Shown here piece by piece: positions 2,672-50,789 of a stretch of DNA of 64,000 nucleotides (its first letter is position 1; every line of letters starts with the position of its first letter). Location of the stretch: positions 2,656,001-2,720,000 of the forward strand of contig OZ241744.1 in assembly GCA_965200965.1 (NCBI GenBank), in the 5' to 3' direction. Position numbers and translations under genes: made by a program. The notes beneath the pieces were generated by a model. It saw only the letters and a list, made by a program, of their open reading frames with translations. It was not told the DNA's origin and did no database searches. Source of the stretch: an uncultured Candidatus Binatia bacterium (GTDB lineage: Bacteria; Desulfobacterota; Binatia; Bin18).

Positions 2672-3946
2672 CTATGACGAAGGCAAGGCCGGAATGCGAA
2701 CTTTTGCCAGCGGTGTGGTTGCCTGGTACAGGGCGTCAAACTCGGCGAGGCGGGCGTCTATGGTCTGCGGTTTGGCCAGCTGTCCAAGGGCCGCCTCCAC
2801 GGTCTTATAGCCGTTGCCGGTAATACATATCACGACCGACTCGTCGCGCGGTATACGCCCCTGTTCAATGAGCTTTTTGGTGGCCGCGACGGTCGTGCCG
2901 CCGGCCGGCTCGGTAAAAATCCCCTCGGTGTGGGCCAGCAGGTGCATGCCGGCCACGATGTCCTGGTCTGTCACCGCTTCGCCCCAGCCGCCCGACTCGC
3001 GGACCGCCTGGAGGACAGCGTAGCCGTCGGCCGGGTTGCCAATGGCGATGGATGTGGCAATGGTGTCCGGCTTGACCGGGGCAATCCGGTCTGTGCCGGT
3101 GTGCAGCGCGGCGACAACCGGCGCACTCCCGGCGGCCTGGGCGGTATACAGTGTGGGCCGCGGCCCGCCCTCAACCAAGCCGACTGTCTGGAGTTCGTCA
3201 AACGCCTTGGCCACCTTGGGCAGAAGCGTGCCGCCCGCGGTTGGCACAACAACGTGCTGGGGCAGCCGCCAGCCGAGTTGTTCGGCTATCTCAAACGCGT
3301 AGGTTTTGGCCCCTTCGGTGTAATATGGCCGGAGGGTGATGTTGACAAACGCCCAGCCATATTTATCGGCAATCTCGCTACACAGCCGGTTCACGTCATC
3401 GTAGTTGCCACGGATGGCGACCGTCTGCGGGCCATAGATCATTGAGCCGACTACCTTCCCCTGTTCAAGGTCGGCCGGAATAAAAATGCAACAGCGCAGC
3501 CCGGCCCGAGCCGCGTGGGCCGAGACCGAGTTGGCCAGATTGCCAGTTGAGGCGCACGACACCGTCTCAAAACCAAACTCGAGCGCTTTTGACAGCGCGA
3601 CCGGGACGACCCGGTCCTTGTACGAAAATGTCGGATGATTGACCGAATCGTCCTTGACATACAGTTCTTCGAGGCCGAGGGCGGCGGCCAGCCGGTCGGC
3701 TTTGACCAGCGGGGTACAGCCGCTGTGGAGGCCGATTGTCGGCGGTCGGCTGAGAGGCAGGAGTTCGTGATAACGCCACAGCGAGGCCGGCCGCGCGGCA
3801 ACCGTCTGGCGAGACATGACGCGGCGGACGAGGGCGTAGTCATACTCTACTTCGAGCGGCCCAAAACACATTTCACACACATGGACGGGAGTGACAGGAT
3901 AGTCCTGTCCGCACTCACAACAGCGTAAACCGGTAACAGTGTTCAT
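2672..3946 (-). CDS. thrC: Threonine synthase-like PLP enzyme with N-terminal Zn ribbon
   Basis: CCECG...CEMCFGPLEV, NHPTFSYKDR, ASTGNLANS, EGAKT, EPAGG, ITGNGYK. Confidence 0.85.
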   Translation of the reverse strand: MNTVTGLRCCECGQDYPVTPVHVCEMCFGPLEVEYDYALVRRVMSRQTVAARPASLWRYHELLPLSRPPTIGLHSGCTPLVKADRLAAALGLEELYVKDDSVNHPTFSYKDRVVPVALSKALEFGFETVSCASTGNLANSVSAHAARAGLRCCIFIPADLEQGKVVGSMIYGPQTVAIRGNYDDVNRLCSEIADKYGWAFVNITLRPYYTEGAKTYAFEIAEQLGWRLPQHVVVPTAGGTLLPKVAKAFDELQTVGLVEGGPRPTLYTAQAAGSAPVVAALHTGTDRIAPVKPDTIATSIAIGNPADGYAVLQAVRESGGWGEAVTDQDIVAGMHLLAHTEGIFTEPAGGTTVAATKKLIEQGRIPRDESVVICITGNGYKTVEAALGQLAKPQTIDARLAEFDALYQATTPLAKVRIPALPSS

Positions 3947-39987: not shown

Positions 39988-41391
39988 ATGCCGCCAACCT
40001 ACCAACCCGCAGACCTGCCCCCAAAGTCGGCCAGCTTCTGGCATCTGGCCGGACCCGGTGCCGTCCTGGTCGGCCTGTCTATTGGGGCCGGTGAATTGAT
40101 TGTCTGGCCCCGCAATACCGCCCAGTTTGGGGCCAGCATGACTTGGGCGGCGGTGCTGGGAGTGTTTGTTCAGCTCTGGATCAACTGTGAGGTCGGCCGC
40201 TATACGCTGGCCACCGGTGAGAGCATCTACGGTGGCTTTGCCCGCCTGTCCCGCCATTTTGCCTGGATCTTTCTGATGCTGAATGTGTGCAGCTGGATTT
40301 TGCCGGGCTGGGCGCGGGCGTGTGGCGGAGCGCTCAAAGTTCTGATTGTCGGCCCCCAGGGCTGGGGAGAGCCCTGGATGTGGACGACGATTACCTTTAT
40401 CGGGGTGGCGGGTGTCCTGTTTGGGCCAAAGCGGGTGTACGCTTCGCTGGAGCAGACGGTCAAGGTTCTGGTTGTGGTGATTACAGTTGGCCTGGTGGCG
40501 ATTACGCTTTCGGTCGGCGGGGCGGCAACCTGGAGAGAGCTGGGTCGGGGTATACTGAATATCCCGTATAAAGACCCCGACATGGCTGTGTACGCCTTAT
40601 TCTCCTCAATTGTTTTTGCCGGAGCGGGAGGAACGGCCAATCTGTTCTTTTCGTTTTATATCCGGGACAAGGGCTGGGGGATGGGCGCACTGGTGCCAAC
40701 GGCGTCCAACCCGCTGCGAGAGCACCAGGAGGCAAGGACTGAGCGGGCGTTTCAGGTCATGATCACTGGGCGCAATATGCAGCGCTGGCGGGCCTGGTTT
40801 CGGCATCTGCAACTTGACCAGGCACTCTTTTTCTGGCTGCTGAATACCTTCACCATCCTGCTGTTCATCTATGGAGCGCTGGCTGTTCTCCACCCCCGCG
40901 GTATCGTCCCCAATCAGGAGTTGCTGGTGTGGCAGGAGGCCGAAATCCTGGGCAGCTTATGGGGGTCGTTCGGCAAGCTGGTGTTTTTGCTGGTCGGCAC
41001 TGCATGTCTGTTCAGCACCCAACTCACGCTGATCGATGGGGTGGCCCGGTCGTGCGCGGATATTCTGCACACCAACTATGCCTGGGCGCAGAAAAAACCG
41101 CTCGGCTGGTGGTATGCCACCCTTGCCCTGGCCTGGATTGTGGCCGGTATTGTCCTGACCTATGTGTATGAAAGCCTGCCGCCCATCCTGTTCCTGCTGG
41201 GTTCGGCGTTTTTCGGTGGGATTGCTATGGCTATCTATACTCCGCTGGTCCTGGTCCTGAATCGGACCAAGCTGCCGGCCGAGTTGCGACCCGGCCCTGT
41301 GCGCTGCGCCATTCTGGGGGCAATCAGCCTTTTCTATATTGTGTTTGCGTTCGGTTCAGCCGCACTGCTGGTCCAACGCCTGTTCGTGTAG
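39988..41391 (+). CDS. Nramp-like (APC superfamily) transporter
   Basis: GPGAVLVGLSIGAGELIVWP, RYTLATGES, many TM segments. Confidence 0.8.
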   Translation: MPPTYQPADLPPKSASFWHLAGPGAVLVGLSIGAGELIVWPRNTAQFGASMTWAAVLGVFVQLWINCEVGRYTLATGESIYGGFARLSRHFAWIFLMLNVCSWILPGWARACGGALKVLIVGPQGWGEPWMWTTITFIGVAGVLFGPKRVYASLEQTVKVLVVVITVGLVAITLSVGGAATWRELGRGILNIPYKDPDMAVYALFSSIVFAGAGGTANLFFSFYIRDKGWGMGALVPTASNPLREHQEARTERAFQVMITGRNMQRWRAWFRHLQLDQALFFWLLNTFTILLFIYGALAVLHPRGIVPNQELLVWQEAEILGSLWGSFGKLVFLLVGTACLFSTQLTLIDGVARSCADILHTNYAWAQKKPLGWWYATLALAWIVAGIVLTYVYESLPPILFLLGSAFFGGIAMAIYTPLVLVLNRTKLPAELRPGPVRCAILGAISLFYIVFAFGSAALLVQRLFV

Positions 41392-41393
41392 CC

Positions 41394-41419
41394 CACAGAG
41401 GGCAGAACTGCCCTCTGTG
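41394..41419. terminator. Perfect hairpin between convergent genes (likely bidirectional terminator)
   Basis: CACAGAGGGCAG-AA-CTGCCCTCTGTG. Confidence 0.7.
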
Positions 41420-41434
41420 ATTGCGTTGGCCGAT

Positions 41435-41749
41435 TTAGACGCTGCCCGACAAGGTAAAAGCGATCACCAGGGCATAGATGGCCAACGCCTCGATAAAGGC
41501 GATACCGATAATCATCGGCGTCTGAATCCGGTCGGCCGAACTCGGGTTGCGGCCGATGGACTCCATCGCCGCGGCAACAGCCCGTCCCTGGCCTAAGCTT
41601 GCTCCAACCGCGGCAATGCCGATAGCCAGGCCGGCAGCCAGAGCGATCACGCCGCGTGACGAGTCGCCCCCCTCCGCGGCAAACGCCGCGCCGCTTGTGC
41701 TCAGTACTATGATCGCCGCCAAAACACCAATACGCCAGACTCTCTTCAT
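41435..41749 (-). CDS. atpE: ATP synthase F0 subunit c
   Basis: [20 protein letters not shown]; N-terminal leader extension. Confidence 0.97.
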
Positions 41750-41890
41750 ACCTCTACTCCTTTCTCGCCCCCCGAAACGGCAGAGACTTGGGCACGCCTC
41801 TCTATCCTCCCCGCCCGTCCTCGCCCCTCTGTCGTCAGGATAGCTGTTTCTCGTCCTGTTTTTTCCTCATTCGCCCTGAAAAGGGTATCA

Positions 41891-42604
41891 TCACGTTTCA
41901 CTTTGGTGGTGATCGTCGTGGGCTACGGCCAGGGAGACATACACCAGACTGAGCAGGGTGAACACAAATGCCTGGACCAGGGAGACAAACGCCCCAAGCG
42001 CATAGAACACCACCGGGATGCCGACCTTGGTTAGATCGGTAAAGATCTCCAGAACAATATGATCGCCGGTCATATTCCCGAACAGGCGCAGTCCCAGGGA
42101 AAAGGGCCGGACAAAGTTGTCTATCAACTCCAGCGGAACCATCAAAAACCCGAGCCACCAGATCGGCCCGACAAAGTGCTTCAGATAGGCGAGGCCCTGT
42201 TCTCGGAAGGCGAAAAAGTTGTAGGCTGCAAACGACAGGACGCCAAGGGCGAAGGCGACATTAAAATTGCTCGTCGGCGGAAGAAAGCCCGGTACGAGGC
42301 CGGTCAGGTTGGCGCAGAGAATGAAGAGGAAAAGACTGCCGTAGAGGTGGACATAGCGACGGGCCTGGTGTCTCAGAATGCCCTCTGCCATGCCCGAGAC
42401 GCCTTCAACCAGTAGCTCAGCCATGTTGCGCAGGCTGAGCGAATCGTCTGGGATGTTCGGGTCAGGGACAGCATCCATCTGTCGCTTGGCCCGGTAGGCC
42501 AGGAAAATAAGCAGACCGGTGACGAGAAGAGAGGTGGCAATATGTCCCGGCAGAAAATTCAAGCCGGGAATCGCAGAAACCCAGGTAAAGGGGTGATGGT
42601 CCAT
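41891..42604 (-). CDS. atpB: ATP synthase F0 subunit a
   Basis: PPTSN, RPFSLGLRLFGNM, VQAFVFTLLSLVY. Confidence 0.97.
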   Translation of the reverse strand: MDHHPFTWVSAIPGLNFLPGHIATSLLVTGLLIFLAYRAKRQMDAVPDPNIPDDSLSLRNMAELLVEGVSGMAEGILRHQARRYVHLYGSLFLFILCANLTGLVPGFLPPTSNFNVAFALGVLSFAAYNFFAFREQGLAYLKHFVGPIWWLGFLMVPLELIDNFVRPFSLGLRLFGNMTGDHIVLEIFTDLTKVGIPVVFYALGAFVSLVQAFVFTLLSLVYVSLAVAHDDHHQSET

Positions 42605-42613
42605 GTCACTCGC

Positions 42614-43033
42614 CTATGAGCACACCGTCTTGGATTCTGGTTCGGACAAGCCAACTATCACGCAGGCCAACAGCAGTAAAGACACCCCGACGGTGAAGCT
42701 CTGCCCATGCACCGGGTAGCGCAGCAGGAGGGTGCTTAATAAAACCAGAAAAAACACGCTCTTGGCCACAAACCACAGGGCGGCGCGAGATTTTCCGGCC
42801 CAGCCCTTGGGAGAAGAGGAAAGTGCGCTACGGACCAGTTTTTTGAGCAGCCAGAAATTGCCCTGCATGACGACCCCGCCCAGAATGAGGCTGAAAATAT
42901 GTCCATATCCGGCCAGCCAGCCAAGCCCGGCACAGAGGCCGACGAGGAGAAGGTTCAGCCACTCAATTTTTTCTATGGTGGTGTGGTTGGGCCGCAAAAG
43001 TGGAACCCGGTAGCCTTTTGACGAAGACATCAC
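42614..43033 (-). CDS. atpI: ATP synthase protein I
   Basis: 4-TM protein directly upstream of atpB; GG..NF.LL motif. Confidence 0.8.
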   Translation of the reverse strand: MMSSSKGYRVPLLRPNHTTIEKIEWLNLLLVGLCAGLGWLAGYGHIFSLILGGVVMQGNFWLLKKLVRSALSSSPKGWAGKSRAALWFVAKSVFFLVLLSTLLLRYPVHGQSFTVGVSLLLLACVIVGLSEPESKTVCS

Positions 43034-43452
43034 GTTTCACTGTCTATGCCGGGACAGATGTTGGAGGACAAGAATCAGACGACACAGCGCCCCTGCCATG
43101 CCGCCGACCGCGCCAAGCACGAGCAGGAAGGGGGCTGTTCCAAATAGGCTATCGAGGTAACGCCCGAGAAAGATTCCGGATCCGGCCAGCCAGCCAAGCC
43201 CGGCACAGAGGCCGACGAGGAGAAGGTTCAGCCACTCAATTTTTTCTATGGTGGTGTGGTTGGGCCGCAAAAGTGGAACCCGGTAGCCTTTTGACGAAGA
43301 CATCACGTTTCACTGTCTATGCCGGGACAGATGTTGGAGGACAAGAATCAGACGACACAGCGCCCCTGCCATGCCGCCGACCGCGCCAAGCACGAGCAGG
43401 AAGGGGGCTGTTCCAAATAGGCTATCGAGGTAACGCCCGAGAAAGATTCCGG
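42907..43452. repeat. Exact 273-bp tandem duplication (42907-43179 / 43180-43452)
   Basis: Two copies identical on visual comparison, spanning the atpZ 3' part and atpI 5' part. Confidence 0.95.
43037..43306 (-). CDS. Chimeric AtpI(N)-AtpZ(C) ORF created by the duplication
   Basis: MMSSSK...GWLAG from atpI joined to GIFLGRYLD...HRQ from atpZ. Confidence 0.6.
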   Translation of the reverse strand: MMSSSKGYRVPLLRPNHTTIEKIEWLNLLLVGLCAGLGWLAGSGIFLGRYLDSLFGTAPFLLVLGAVGGMAGALCRLILVLQHLSRHRQ

Positions 43453-43528
43453 CCAGGACCGCTCCGGCAAACTCAATGCCCAGAGCGCCATATCTGCCGT
43501 AGACGAGGAGGGTGGGAGAGTGAGGCAT
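43310..43528 (-). CDS. atpZ: AtpZ/AtpI (ATPase gene 1) family protein
   Basis: LGIEF...G.FLGRYLD..FGTAP 2-TM signature. Confidence 0.85.
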   Translation of the reverse strand: MPHSPTLLVYGRYGALGIEFAGAVLAGIFLGRYLDSLFGTAPFLLVLGAVGGMAGALCRLILVLQHLSRHRQ

Positions 43529-43540
43529 GCCGATATGAGT

Positions 43541-43622
43541 GAGTTATCCACACTTGTGAATGACTCGATAAGTTACTATATCATAATAAGTTTTTCGACA
43601 GTTTCCACAAGGTTTTCCACAT
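43541..43622 (-). promoter_or_regulatory. DnaA-box promoter module upstream of atpZIBE
   Basis: TTATCCACA 43544-43552 with inverted partner, TTTTCCACA 43613-43621, TATGAT -10-like on the minus strand; 60/82 ungapped identity to 45221-45302. Confidence 0.75.
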
Positions 43623-43638
43623 ACCTGAGACCCGAGCT

Positions 43639-44925
43639 TCAGGTCGGCCCGAGTTGTCGCATGACTTCTGTAGCGGCGGAGACTGTTTCGTCAATCTCGG
43701 CCTCGCCGTGGGCTAAGGAGACAAAGGCGGCCTCGAACTGGGAGGGCGGGAGATAGATGCCGCGCTCGATCATGCCGTGAAAATAACGGGCAAACAACGC
43801 GGTGTCACAGCCGACAGCGCTGGTATAATTGCGGACCTGATCGACGCCGAAGAAAACGGTGATCATTGAGCCGAACTGATTGACACAAGCCTGAACGCTG
43901 GTGTCCTGAATGGCCTTTCGCAATCCCTCTGCCAAGCGAGCGCTCGTTTCATTTAAGCGTGCATACGCGCCCGAGGTGTTCATGATCTTGAGCGTTTCAA
44001 TGCCGGCTGTGACCGCTAAGGGATTGCCCGACAGGGTTCCGGCTTGGTAGACTGGGCCGAGCGGGGCAAGACAACCCATAATGTCCCGTTTACCGCCAAC
44101 CGCCGCCAACGGCAGTCCGCCGCCGATAACTTTGCCAAAACAACTCAGGTCCGGGTCAATACTGTACAATTCCTGAGCCCCGCCCCGCGCCAGGCGAAAG
44201 CCGCTCATAACCTCGTCAAAGATAAGGACTATTCCGGCCTCTCTGGTCAGGTTGCGCAATTCGGTTAAAAAACCTGGGGCGGGCAGGACAAGGCCCATAT
44301 TGCCGGGAACGGGTTCGATAATGACGCCGGCAATCGTGTTGGGATTGGCGCTGATGTACGCCTCCACGCTGGCCAGATTATTGTACTCGGCAATCAGGGT
44401 TTGACTGGCGAAGGCTTCGGGCACACCTTTGCTATCGGGCTGACTCAAGGTCAGTGCTCCCGATCCAGCTCGGACCAGCAGGGCGTCGGTATGGCCGTGG
44501 TAGCAGCCGGCGAACTTGATAATTTTAGTCCGGTCCGTGTAGCCCCTGGCAATCCGCAGTGCGGTCATGGTCGCTTCGGTTCCAGACGAGGTAAGGCGGA
44601 CCTTGTCAACTGAGGGAACGGCATCAACGACCATCCGGGCCAACTCAATCTCTCTGGCGGTTGGCGCGCCAAAACTTGTCCCACATTTGACCATGCTCTC
44701 AAGGGCGCGCACGACCTGCGGATGGGCATGGCCGGCAATCAGGGGCCCCCACGACCCAACATAGTCAATATACTCTTTGCCATCCGCATCAACCACCCGG
44801 CAGCCATGACCACGCTGGATGAAGGGCGGAGTGCCGTCTACTGCCCGCCAGGCGCGCACCGGACTATTGACTCCGCCGGGTATAATTTCCTGGGCTTGGC
44901 GAAAAAGCTTATCTGACGTGGACAT
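43639..44925 (-). CDS. hemL: Glutamate-1-semialdehyde 2,1-aminomutase
   Basis: PGGVNSPVRA, SGTEATM, FDEVMSGFR, GKVIGGGLP, YQAGTLSGNP, PSQFEA. Confidence 0.98.
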   Translation of the reverse strand: MSTSDKLFRQAQEIIPGGVNSPVRAWRAVDGTPPFIQRGHGCRVVDADGKEYIDYVGSWGPLIAGHAHPQVVRALESMVKCGTSFGAPTAREIELARMVVDAVPSVDKVRLTSSGTEATMTALRIARGYTDRTKIIKFAGCYHGHTDALLVRAGSGALTLSQPDSKGVPEAFASQTLIAEYNNLASVEAYISANPNTIAGVIIEPVPGNMGLVLPAPGFLTELRNLTREAGIVLIFDEVMSGFRLARGGAQELYSIDPDLSCFGKVIGGGLPLAAVGGKRDIMGCLAPLGPVYQAGTLSGNPLAVTAGIETLKIMNTSGAYARLNETSARLAEGLRKAIQDTSVQACVNQFGSMITVFFGVDQVRNYTSAVGCDTALFARYFHGMIERGIYLPPSQFEAAFVSLAHGEAEIDETVSAATEVMRQLGPT

Positions 44926-45220
44926 AGCTCGTTTTCTGACCTCACGATTGGTTACTCTGTACTCTAGCACTGGGCGTATGGAACGTCAAGGTAAAAAACA
45001 TTGTGCAGCAAAATTAGCAACTTCTCGCACGCTGCAACTGTTTCGCTTGCATTGCTCATCAAAAATGTCTAAACACCCTAACACAACACCAAACGCATTC
45101 TCTTTTTCAGAACAGATAACAGCGATGCTGTAGAAGATGGTCTTCTCCTTTCTTTTTCACTCTCATGGCTTGATCGGCCAGGTTTCGCTGGGAGGGAGAG
45201 AAAGAAGGCAGGGGAAGAGT

Positions 45221-45302
45221 ATGTGGAAAAGTCTGTGAAATTTGGGGAGAAATCCTTTATGACATAGAGGGTTGACGAGTTATTCACAGGTGTGGATAAC
45301 TC
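45221..45302 (+). promoter_or_regulatory. dnaA promoter region with DnaA boxes
   Basis: TGTGGAAAA 45222-45230, TTATTCACA 45280-45288, TGTGGATAA 45291-45299. Confidence 0.85.
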
Positions 45303-45330
45303 GCCGATCAACCCGGTACGAGTACAGGGT

Positions 45331-46740
45331 ATGGAGCGGGTGTGGGAAAACGTATTGGATGTTGCTGAAGAAAAGATTGGGAAGACCAACATCGAGACTT
45401 GGCTGAAGCCAACTCGTCCGATTGGACTACGAGGGGACACGTTTCATCTGGAAGTTCCGAGTCCGCTGTTCCGTGAGTGGCTCCTCAACAATCTTCTTGA
45501 ACCGCTTGAAGCTTCGCTTGCCTCTGTCCTTGGCCAGACGGCGCAGGTAGCGATTCACGTCAACAGCAGCCAGCAGGGTGAGTTGTTTCCTGCCGATGCG
45601 TCGTCGGTCCAACTCCAAGATGCGGGCACCAAGCGCACCCCTGAGCCGGCTTCCGCATTGATCCCACGGGCAACCAGAAGCAAAGCGCGTCCGACCAAGA
45701 AAAACGGTCTGTTGCAGAACTTGACCTTTTCAAGCTTTGTGGTCGGAGGCGGCAATCAGTTTGCCCATGCTGCAGCCCGGGCAGTAGCCGATCATCCCGG
45801 CAATCACTACAACCCGCTGTTTATCTATGGCGGGGTGGGGCTGGGCAAGACGCACTTGATAAATGCCATTGGGCATGAGAGCCTGGTCAAACAGGGCAAG
45901 AGCAGCGTGTTTTATTTGTCCTCCGAGTCTTTTACTAATGAATTGATTTCTTACATCCGTCGAGACCGGATGGATGACTTCAAAACAAAGTTTCGCCAAG
46001 CGGATGTGCTGATTGTCGACGATGTTCAGTTTCTGTCTGGTCGAGAGCGGACCCAAGAAGAATTTTTTCACACATTCAATACCTTATACGAGGCTCACAA
46101 ACAAATCGTGCTCACCTCCGACAAGTTTCCAAACGAAATTCAGGGCTTGGAAGAGCGGCTACGCAACCGGTTTGAGTCGGGTCTGATTACCGATATTCAG
46201 CCGCCTGATCTGGAAACGCGGGTAGCGATTTTGCAAAAAAAGGCCCAGGCCAGGAAGATCCAGATTTCGTCTGAGGTTGCGCTGTTCATTGCCTCAAACG
46301 TCACCGCCAATGTCCGTGAACTGGAAGGCGGGTTGACTCGGCTTGACGCCCTGTCAAACATGAATGAGACGCCTATTACGGTCGATTTTGCCCGCCAGGT
46401 TTTGCATAATCTCGTCAAGGAGAAGGGCCCGAAGGTGACGATCGAAATGGTCCAGCAGGCCAGCGCCAAATACTTTGGCGTGCGGGTGAGTGATCTGGTC
46501 TCCAAAAAACGGACCAAACCGGTGACTTTTCCGCGTCAGGTGTCCATGTACTTGTGCCGCAAGCTGGCCAATACCTCCTACCCGACGATCGGCATTCGGT
46601 TTGGTGGCAAAGATCACACCACTGCCTTGTATGCTTGCAATAGGATAGAAAAACGCCTCAAAAATGACGAAGAGTTGCGCTCTGTCCTGGACCGGATTGA
46701 AAGCACGATCTACAGCCAACAGATCAAGGACCAGCCCTGA
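45331..46740 (+). CDS. dnaA: Chromosomal replication initiator DnaA
   Basis: YNPLFIYGGVGLGKTHL, DDVQFL, QEEFFHTFN, NVRELEG, FGGKDHTT. Confidence 0.99.
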   Translation: MERVWENVLDVAEEKIGKTNIETWLKPTRPIGLRGDTFHLEVPSPLFREWLLNNLLEPLEASLASVLGQTAQVAIHVNSSQQGELFPADASSVQLQDAGTKRTPEPASALIPRATRSKARPTKKNGLLQNLTFSSFVVGGGNQFAHAAARAVADHPGNHYNPLFIYGGVGLGKTHLINAIGHESLVKQGKSSVFYLSSESFTNELISYIRRDRMDDFKTKFRQADVLIVDDVQFLSGRERTQEEFFHTFNTLYEAHKQIVLTSDKFPNEIQGLEERLRNRFESGLITDIQPPDLETRVAILQKKAQARKIQISSEVALFIASNVTANVRELEGGLTRLDALSNMNETPITVDFARQVLHNLVKEKGPKVTIEMVQQASAKYFGVRVSDLVSKKRTKPVTFPRQVSMYLCRKLANTSYPTIGIRFGGKDHTTALYACNRIEKRLKNDEELRSVLDRIESTIYSQQIKDQP

Positions 46741-46774
46741 TGTACCGCTTGGTCACCGCTCTAAGCCCCACGGA

Positions 46775-47030
46775 CCTGTGGATAACCTGTGGATAACCTG
46801 TGGATAACCTGTGGATAACCTGTGGATAACCTGTGGATAACCTGTGGATAACCTGTGGATAACCTGTGGATAACTTTGAGGGGGGTGTGGATAACTTTGA
46901 GGGGGGTGTGGATAAGTGGCCGAGTTATCCACAGGGGGTGTGAATAACTTCTCTTTTAAAATCAATTACTTAAGTGAGTTATCCACATATTCACACCCCC
47001 CTGCTACTACTCTTATATATTATATAAAGA
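46775..47030. other. Replication origin oriC: DnaA-box array, DnaA-trios and AT-rich unwinding element
   Basis: 13 perfect TTATCCACA boxes (9 as CCTGTGGATAA x9 at 46775-46873), TGTGAATAA 46939-46947, CTACTAC trios, TATATATTATATAAA; between dnaA and dnaN. Confidence 0.95.
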
Positions 47031-47072
47031 AGATGAGAAATGACGTAAATCCAGAACAAAGAGGAATCCGGT

Positions 47073-48245
47073 ATGGAATGTCTTGTGGAAAAAGACGAAC
47101 TGTTGCGCTCTTTATACCTTGTGCAGGGAGTGGTCGAGAAACGCTCTTCGCTGCCTATTCTCGCCCATGTCCTGATTGAGTCAACGGATGCACAGACCGA
47201 CGCCGAGGGAGGCGCTCTGTCACTTGGGGCCACGGACCTTGAGATCAGTATTCGCCAAAGCTGTAAGGCGAGCGTCAAGAAGACCGGCTCTATCACCACC
47301 GACGCTCGCAAGCTGTATGAAATCGTCCGCGAGCTACCGAGCACGGGGGGCGGATCCTCCGACCCGACCGTCATAACCCTGCGCTCAGCTGGCAGTGGTT
47401 GGATAGAGGTCAGCAGTGGAAAATCCCGGTTCAGGATGGCTAGCCTTGACCCCAAAGAGTTTCCGGCTATAACCCCTGCTCAAGAGGCCGATGGCACGGT
47501 ACCCGCAGCCGCATCGTGTCCTGGCGAAATCATGCGAGAAATGATTGAGAAGACGCTGTTTGCCACCTCGCCGGATGAAACACGCCTCAATCTGAGCGGT
47601 GTGTATGTCGAAGCCCTTGACTCGGGAAAGCTGCGTATGGTGGCCAGTGACGGTCATCGTTTGTCTCTCATCGACCGCCAGGCAGCGATAGCCGACCCAG
47701 CGGCTTGGCCCAAAGTCATTTTGCCCCGCAAAGGGTTAATCGAGGCCCGCAAGATCCTGGAACGGAGCGAGGGCGAGGCCCGCTTCTCTCTGCAGGGGAC
47801 GATGGCAGGGATGCACAAGGAGGCTACCGCGCTGTCCATGCGCTTGGTTGAGGGTGAATTCCCGGATTACCAGCAGATTCTGCCCACCGCGCGGAATTTT
47901 GTGATTCCCTTCTCCCGTGAAGAGTTGCTGAGGGCGCTGCGCCGGCTGTTGATTCTGACCACCGAACGGTCGCGCGGGATTAAGATCCAGGTCGAAGCCG
48001 GGAAGGTCGAAATCTCGGTCAATACCCCTGACCTTGGCGAGGGGGTGGAGGAGGTCATGACAGACTACAGCGGAGACAGCATCGCTGTCGGCTTTAATGG
48101 CCGCTACTTGGTGGAGGCCCTGACCGTGATGGGCGAAGACCAGCAGATTACATTGTCCCTCAAGGACGATATGAGCCCGGGTTTGCTCAAGATGACCGAA
48201 GATCAGGACTTCTCGTATGTGATCATGCCGATGCGCATATTTTAA
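47073..48245 (+). CDS. dnaN: DNA polymerase III beta clamp
   Basis: ATDLE, VASDGHRL, EGEFPDYQ, GFNGRYL, VIMPMR. Confidence 0.98.
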   Translation: MECLVEKDELLRSLYLVQGVVEKRSSLPILAHVLIESTDAQTDAEGGALSLGATDLEISIRQSCKASVKKTGSITTDARKLYEIVRELPSTGGGSSDPTVITLRSAGSGWIEVSSGKSRFRMASLDPKEFPAITPAQEADGTVPAAASCPGEIMREMIEKTLFATSPDETRLNLSGVYVEALDSGKLRMVASDGHRLSLIDRQAAIADPAAWPKVILPRKGLIEARKILERSEGEARFSLQGTMAGMHKEATALSMRLVEGEFPDYQQILPTARNFVIPFSREELLRALRRLLILTTERSRGIKIQVEAGKVEISVNTPDLGEGVEEVMTDYSGDSIAVGFNGRYLVEALTVMGEDQQITLSLKDDMSPGLLKMTEDQDFSYVIMPMRIF

Positions 48246-48299
48246 TTTCAAAAACCTTATTTGTCCCGCCCGTGCGTTTACTTCGCAGCCAGAAAATGA

Positions 48300-50789
<2,490 letters not shown>

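Follow-up and report, generated by a model that had tools for sequence, protein, structure and literature searches.

A window of 64,000 nt (the whole stretch of DNA analysed here, corresponding to positions 2,656,001 to 2,720,000 of contig OZ241744.1 in the 3.62-Mb genome of an uncultured Candidatus Binatia bacterium, labelled G000) contains two similar clusters of predicted DnaA boxes on either side of hemL, one before dnaA and the other before atpZ. This raises the question of why a DnaA-box cluster should precede genes encoding ATP synthase. A sequence-only reading of this locus had proposed that atpZIBE is wired to the same DnaA control as dnaA or, alternatively, that the two clusters are satellite sub-origins or titration sites. 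These proposals were considered by comparison of the source genome with relatives, likewise labelled (G001, G003, G004, and so on).

Two copies of a DnaA-box module flank hemL

The match claimed between the reverse complement of the atp-side module and the dnaA-side module (Table 1) was confirmed, with an exact count of 60/82 positions in an ungapped alignment. The pair was returned by a repeat finder as the longest inverted repeat in the 40-50-kb portion of the window (84 nt, 74%). This resemblance is far above chance, as the next-best ungapped matches to either copy on both strands of the entire genome reached 42/82 and 41/82. Likewise, when the genome was scanned with a weight matrix derived from 19 dnaA-side modules found in other genomes, scores of 93.5 and 87.9 bits were obtained for the two copies, as against -16.4 for the next site. 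Given that just two copies exist in G000, and that the sequence separating the tandem copies of G004 (see below) finds no significant match elsewhere in 5/5 genomes searched, a dispersed repeat or mobile element was ruled out.

Read toward the downstream gene, each module has, in order, two similarly directed boxes separated by 3 bp, a spacer of 37 bp and two inverted boxes with 2 bp between them, with the spacing of the four predicted boxes of the dnaA-side module being fixed. The sub-motifs described earlier were all found, each copy is aimed into its own downstream gene, and the designation of both modules as predicted DnaA-box clusters was supported. The -10-like element TTATGAYATAG fared less well, being common to both G000 copies but kept neither in sequence nor in position among relatives. 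In an alignment, G000 DnaA was seen to keep the DNA-reading residues of domain IV of the E. coli protein (R399, P423, and D433-T436), such that standard box recognition may fairly be inferred.

The atp-side copy was covered by contigs from 4/4 runs, coming from four studies, and from 1/4 further runs. One of the runs containing the copy is a sponge metagenome, and in run X3, which may represent the sample of origin, zero differences were seen over the copy. As contigs from several studies contain it, an assembly artefact was ruled out as the origin of the atp-side copy.

No Rfam match was obtained across positions 41000-48500 at E values up to 1. A structured RNA was rejected, given the absence of such a match and of a consensus fold for the spacer, and the presence of only a partial dyad; two spacer dyad pairs beat column shuffles in a comparison in which the kin considered are not independent. 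The conserved parts of the spacer are an invariant TTR (38/38) and an upstream A-tract, found at IHF-like spacing. The IHF consensus core is absent from the module spacer, with the best match containing 2-4 mismatches in 30/30 spacers, as compared to zero mismatches in E. coli datA and in the predicted G000 oriC. A canonical IHF site in the spacer was dropped, since the core is missing.

Table 1. Positions of genes, modules and predicted elements (window coordinates)
Feature	Position	Strand	Remarks
atpE, F0 subunit c	41435..41749	-	subunit c families
atpB, F0 subunit a	41891..42604	-	TIGR01131 above cut-off
atpI (intact copy)	42614..43033	-	PF03899, E 9e-4, below cut-off; synteny
atpZ	43310..43528	-	PF09527
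hemL-atpZ gap	43529..43638	-	110 nt in G000 vs 5 nt stop-to-start in G001, G003, G005, G006
atp-side module copy	43541..43622	-	apparent derived insertion at hemL-atpZ junction; in G000, G007, G004 only
atp-side boxes (predicted)	box 1 43613-43621; box 2 43601-43609; 37-bp spacer; inverted box 3 43555-43563 and box 4 43544-43552	-	
Additional weak box in atp-side copy	43592-43600		
hemL, glutamate-1-semialdehyde aminomutase	43639..44925	-	TIGR00713 above cut-off; between the two modules
Predicted hemL sigma-70-type promoter	44961..44989	-	TTGACG, 17 nt, TAGAGT
Predicted dnaA sigma-70-type promoter	45047..45075	+	TTGCAT, 17 nt, TAAACA; 145 nt upstream of dnaA-side module
dnaA-side module	45221..45302	+	predicted ancestral, family-wide leader operator; end 31 nt before dnaA ATG
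dnaA-side boxes (predicted)	box 1 45222-45230; box 2 45234-45242; 37-bp spacer; inverted pair 45280-45288 and 45291-45299	+	
dnaA	45331..46740	+	ATG at 45331; TIGR00362
Predicted oriC	46741..47072	+	dnaA-dnaN gap
oriC boxes	nine at 11-bp period, 46777-46873; more at 46886, 46907, 46925, 46939; boxes 46979, 46987		
oriC further parts	IHF consensus 46960-46972 (exact); C-run; trio-like repeat 47002-47011; AT-rich tract		

Promoter-like sites precede both modules

In the window, atpE-atpB-atpI-atpZ-hemL lie on the minus strand and are followed by dnaA-dnaN on the plus strand, a gene order kept in most of the 40 relatives searched. Divergent promoter-like sites were found at fixed positions in 25/25 (dnaA) and 23/25 (hemL) genomes; the patterns were drawn from the same sequences, with shuffle rates of 5.6% and 2.6%, respectively. 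The dnaA site lies 277-309 nt before dnaA in all 25 genomes, with the module found downstream. Because the promoter-like sites lie upstream of both modules, atpZIBE is likely transcribed from the predicted promoter of hemL, which would thus drive hemL-atpZIBE. The stretch separating hemL from the atp-side copy yielded no terminator. The genes encoding the b-subunit and F1 are found elsewhere, behind parB at 2.51 Mb, and no module was detected at these genes in G000. With promoter-like sites upstream of the modules and the F1 half of the enzyme module-free, the proposed wiring of atpZIBE in general to DnaA by way of a shared promoter could not be upheld.

Examination of the atp genes also revealed a 273-bp tandem duplication (99% identical; window positions 42902-43447) across the atpZ-atpI junction. 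This yields an extra atpI/atpZ fusion frame (43037-43306), with atpZ and atpI remaining intact. Runs X4, X8, and X12 are without the duplication and X3 resembles a collapsed repeat, such that the duplication seems to be strain-specific rather than species-wide.

The dnaA-side module is found across the family

A sequence-model search identified the full-length module at 46 bits or more in 49/56 genomes of the order, in single copy in 44, whereas a class-wide model search of 151 genomes revealed no full-length, high-scoring module outside the family. Pattern matches in metagenomes all lay on the dnaA side of hemL (16/16, with dnaA in view in 14). Among 35 pattern matches in genomes, 24 of which are titled Candidatus Binatia or Binatota, 29 lie directly before dnaA, while the others correspond to the atp-side copies of G004 and G007, one orphan in G025 and three matches in unrelated taxa; these two sets contained no other atp-side copy. 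On such comparisons, the dnaA-side module is taken to be the ancestral form.

As the dnaA-side module lies downstream of a conserved promoter-like site, it would correspond to a leader operator rather than to a promoter. Autorepression through boxes that lie downstream of the promoter of dnaA is described for several bacteria in excerpts of PMC2533591 (here and below, the papers cited by PMC number are represented by parts of their text), and by analogy, the position of the module fits DnaA autorepression. Like the autoregulatory operators described there, the module is found between a promoter-like site and the start of dnaA (25/25 genomes); unlike them, it presents an invariant 58/69-bp box spacing, together with a spacer A-tract and invariant TTR that are peculiar to this family.

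Several additional observations concern this region. Just 5' of the dnaA-side module, at window positions 45135-45220, complementary pyrimidine-rich and purine-rich tracts are seen, as they are in most family members; these may form a conserved hairpin, although no Rfam match was found for them. In 7/13 genomes of other families (G027, G028, G032, G035, G036, G039, and G040), the hemL-dnaA gap contains a third box 3 bp after the inverted pair before dnaA, reproducing the topology of the E. coli DARS core except that the inverted boxes are 2 bp rather than 5 bp apart. The G007 match to dnaA (locus L037) is split and includes a single in-frame stop within the aligned range, probably because of an assembly error.

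The atp-side copy is restricted to one clade

Of 40 loci fetched, 36 were those in which both hemL and atpZ could be located, and among these, a module was found between the two genes only in G000, G007, and G004. As such, the copy is present in 3/8 members of the genus and absent from 5/8. Across the order, atpZ was found in 54/56 genomes, with the module beside it in three and absent from 51/54, a count in which fragmented genomes could conceal a copy. The conservation upstream of atpZ that was to be expected if atpZIBE were generally under DnaA control was thus not seen. Measured from the final aligned codon of hemL, atpZ lies 113, 112, and 639 nt away in G000, G007, and G004, respectively, as compared to 11-28 nt in the other five members of the genus. 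A TCGG(T/C/G) pentamer is found on both sides of the insert, where it forms an exact direct repeat in G007, and is possibly a target-site duplication.

In a tree based on six concatenated proteins from 20 genomes, from which four single-gene rows with stops had been dropped, G000, G007, and G004 formed one clade (support 0.99). In a weak tree of 30 modules, the atp-side copies grouped beside the dnaA-side modules of the genus (support 0.92). The atp-side module is therefore likely to have been duplicated from the dnaA leader operator, and a single gain through duplication of the dnaA-side module offers the simplest reading of the sequences.

In the G004 assembly, four tandem copies are found at intervals of 151-152 nt, in three of which a third box lies 3 bp beyond the inverted pair. 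The 71-nt sequence between these copies (L034:1909-2440) is unrelated to the sequences flanking the array, starts with an extra one-mismatch box and folds into a hairpin; no significant match to this spacer was found elsewhere in 5/5 genomes searched.

G025, belonging to another family of the order, contains a full-length orphan copy with four perfect boxes. This orphan sits between cytochrome c genes and a methionine-synthase-like gene, oriented against both, on a contig different from that bearing dnaA-dnaN. The weak module tree pairs it with G025's own dnaA module (support 0.63).

Other module-like sequences away from the native dnaA locus were also noted. Ectopic duplicates of dnaA together with its leader module were seen in G025 (L131, L052), where the two dnaA sequences are 96.5% identical, and in G050 (L163, L164), where the dnaA at the native locus is internally deleted and an intact dnaA lies elsewhere. 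Accordingly, the second matches in G050 and one in G025 were rejected as orphans, being duplicated dnaA genes with their module. These duplicates could reflect assembly or strain mixing; ectopic duplication of dnaA is also a possible route to orphan modules. Two dnaA genes are found in many members of the class. Two sequences titled Akkermansia (L098 and L123, around 1801-1878) show the same box spacing and an AT-rich spacer with no dnaA nearby and are probably convergent; the neighbours in L098 appear phage-like by eye. Finally, G035 (L132, around 3600-3660) contains, away from dnaA, an orphan cluster in which a weak tandem pair is combined with an inverted pair, with the spacing being different.

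The boxes of the atp-side copy appear constrained

Comparison of the G000 and G004 copies revealed 32/36 identical positions in the boxes and 26/46 outside them (one-sided Fisher p 0.0012); for G007 and G004, the corresponding values were 32/36 and 27/46. Fourfold-degenerate sites of neighbouring genes match at 508/757 positions (0.67). As non-box identity is close to this level, the non-box part seems to have drifted in a near-neutral manner, with the boxes being constrained. The pattern of substitutions thus points to purifying selection on the atp-side boxes. Internal spacing is exact between species, even as the flanks have turned over. At the same time, a T-to-C change in box 3 of G000 is absent from G007 and a 1-bp insertion in the atp-side spacer was seen in 2/4 runs, suggesting that the constraint is loose.

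Box 2 has 0-1 mismatch in 4/4 extra copies, as compared to 4/26 dnaA-side modules, although here, as with AT content, only two independent origins are involved, such that p values overstate the difference. A 3-bp double box with no more than one mismatch is found in G000 and G007 solely in the atp-side copy, and the five genus members lacking the copy retain a good double box before dnaA; a poor box 2 (2-6 mismatches) is, however, also seen in many family members without an extra copy. Five boxes with at most one mismatch fall within positions 43544-43621, in intergenic DNA, as in the DnaA-box clusters (DBCs) of Bacillus. Across the whole genome, the atp-side copy is the only place outside oriC where four or more such boxes are found per 100 bp.

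The atp-side copy as a proposed origin-proximal DnaA-box cluster

The origin was assigned to the dnaA-dnaN gap because of the anatomy of this region (Table 1) and its position opposite the GC-skew maximum at 873,299. The gap contains a TAC repeat in 16/21 genomes, and its tandem array of boxes, spaced at 11-12 bp, varies from 3 to more than 10 copies among family members. The skew minimum, at 2,481,857, lies at a distance of about 220 kb from dnaA-dnaN, and the region near the origin (2.48-2.70 Mb) may have been rearranged. Near the skew minimum lie parB, the F1 operon, and two of the three IHF/HU-family genes of G000, as well as a palindrome at 2,510,759 that is presumably parS-like.

The atp-side copy most likely represents a supplementary cluster of DnaA boxes near the origin, similar in kind to Bacillus DBCs and derived from the dnaA operator, a reading to which we assign about an even chance of being correct. 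Drawing on what is known of DnaA, the protein would bind the tandem double box and the inverted pair, with the dnaA-side original repressing dnaA from downstream of its promoter. The copy, replicated right after initiation, would sequester DnaA as do Bacillus DBCs, and DnaA held there would damp or time initiation at the predicted oriC. The atp genes would mainly offer a tolerated landing site, with some roadblocking of their transcript perhaps arising as a side effect. The earlier suggestion of a titration site accordingly corresponds to the preferred reading, whereas that of satellite sub-origins does not survive, as no DnaA-trios (TAC repeat) were found beside either module and neither thus shows an unwinding region.

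Several lines of evidence were counted in favour of the DBC reading. At about 3.2 kb from the predicted oriC, the copy is near the origin, and its boxes show the substitution pattern of selected DnaA sites. The atp genes do not need it, given its absence from so many genomes of the genus and order with the same gene order. The four tandem copies in G004 suggest a change of the dosage type, the G025 orphan, found away from atp genes, argues for position independence, and box 2 is better in the extra copies. To these can be added that the copy is the sole dense cluster outside oriC and that the F1 operon is module-free. Neither Hda nor SeqA was found in G000, a 99.3%-complete genome, and DBCs, which suppress early initiation from ectopic sites, are expected in bacteria lacking both (PMC3245932). 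According to the same source, oriC-proximal clusters of the B. subtilis type precede different genes in different species, while DnaA titration is supported in E. coli as well (PMC12371093).

Other considerations weaken the DBC reading. The copy lies within a likely transcription unit, in the orientation of the original and 15 nt from the start of atpZ, as would an operator. The orphan in G025 could be what is left of a dnaA gene duplicated ectopically, and both the box-3 change and the 1-bp spacer insertion are within-species differences. Moreover, deletion of single DBCs in B. subtilis is reported to have little effect (PMC3245932).

Comparison with known DnaA elements

Like B. subtilis DBCs (PMC3245932, PMC2533591), the atp-side copy is an intergenic cluster of at least four boxes near oriC; such clusters lie upstream of genes that differ by species, are patchy among relatives, occur in a host without Hda and SeqA, and may repress neighbours and damp initiation. 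Unlike DBCs, the copy is a recognisable duplicate of a dnaA leader operator with a fixed architecture, its gain can be dated to one clade, and it has been amplified in G004 and independently orphaned in G025.

With the E. coli double DnaA box (PMC11317965), the module shares two similarly directed boxes 3 bp apart, weak before strong on the box strand; that motif, in the portion of the source at hand, is without an inverted pair 2 bp apart, whereas the module combines both. The inverted pair has the polarity of boxes I and II of the E. coli DARS1/DARS2 core (PMC6868365). The module pair is, however, separated by 2 bp rather than 5 bp, a box III lying in tandem 3 bp on is absent from G000 and its family, being present in the seven genomes of other families listed above and in three G004 copies, and Gln208, which makes the head-to-head contact, is replaced by Asn in the aligned G000 DnaA. 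Identity with DARS was rejected on these three grounds. As in E. coli datA (PMC4585315), a tandem double box and an inverted pair are separated by a spacer of IHF-like geometry, yet the module spacer is 37 bp rather than about 150 bp long, the tandem pair is reversed and no IHF consensus core is found, such that identity with datA was also rejected.

The Pseudomonas oriCII, upstream of gidAB-parAB (PMC13438810), similarly represents a second near-origin DnaA-box cluster affecting a neighbouring operon and is the nearest published link between DnaA boxes and the region upstream of atp genes. As described there, oriCII, found family-wide, replicates plasmids as well as activating a promoter, whereas the atp-side copy is clade-restricted and without unwinding elements; an unwinding sub-origin was thus discarded. 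The available part of PMC8203912 names no atp target.

Alternative readings

A role at the atp genes themselves was also considered. Here, the copy would be kept as a DnaA roadblock or operator on the hemL-atpZIBE transcript, such that in the clade DnaA would control F0 subunits a and c, a possibility we regard as rather unlikely. DnaA roadblocks have been described (PMC11317965, PMC2533591), and the copy has the orientation and leader-like position of the dnaA-side module, lying 15 nt rather than 31 nt before the ATG and downstream of a conserved promoter-like site. Its boxes appear to be under selection, and an insertion in an essential operon has persisted through substantial divergence. 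Yet the module is missing from nearly all atpZ-bearing genomes of the order, the module-free state of the F1 and b-subunit genes would leave the enzyme only partly controlled, and the four tandem G004 copies and the antisense G025 orphan are hard to explain as atp operators. A more specific version, in which the clade recruited its transplanted dnaA operator as a roadblock, such that synthesis of F0 subunits a and c falls at the peak of active DnaA and copy number (1 or 4) sets the strength, is doubtful. A link between DnaA and ATP synthase is thus conceivable only for the clade of G000, G007, and G004 and is not the leading reading, although titration and roadblock roles are mutually compatible.

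It is improbable that the copy is instead an accessory part of a multipartite origin, where DnaA bound to the copy would reach, by looping, the unwinding site of the dnaA-dnaN gap and assist in its loading. Such a role would agree with the proximity of the copy to the predicted oriC and with its fixed internal spacing, and precedents exist in B. subtilis, with distal boxes functional at distances of up to 462 bp (PMC6669920), and in oriC1 of the bipartite H. pylori origin (PMC3479198). Against it are the lack of trios beside the modules, the TAC repeat being found in the dnaA-dnaN gap, the five genus members that do without the copy and the location of the G025 orphan on another contig than dnaA-dnaN.

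Still less probable is that the copy introduced a new internal atpZIBE promoter flanked by DnaA boxes. A 9/12 match to a sigma-70 promoter (TGGAAA, 16 nt, TATGAT) is found in the copy, and spacers of the copies are AT-rich, but the TATGAY hexamer occurs at module positions 38, 35, and 40 in G000, G007, and G004, respectively, with no fixed -35 element. The dnaA-side original has its promoter-like site well upstream instead, and no terminator that would isolate the copy from hemL was detected.

Lastly, that the copy is a neutral, decaying by-product of duplication is very improbable and largely refuted already, for while the overall 58/82 identity of the G000 and G004 copies is near the fourfold-site level and the box-3 change and spacer insertion are found within species, changes avoid the boxes and spacing is exact between species despite turnover of the flanks.

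Implications

Taken together, sequence comparisons point to the atp-side module as a clade-restricted, selected duplicate of the dnaA leader operator. In the literature searched, no report was found of a duplicated dnaA operator or, for this lineage, of DnaA boxes preceding atpZ or atpI. It is known that initiation is tuned by clusters of DnaA boxes lying away from the origin, yet their source is rarely visible. Here, the dnaA leader operator can be recognised as the likely source of such a cluster, which was gained in one clade, forms a fourfold array in one of its members and has an independent orphan counterpart in another genome of the order. The lineage, in which no Hda or SeqA was found, accordingly offers a natural series of 0, 1, and 4 copies for titration models. 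Should the copy instead act as a roadblock, it would represent direct control of ATP synthase genes by DnaA, not found described in the literature searched, and would couple ATP synthase assembly directly to the initiation of replication.
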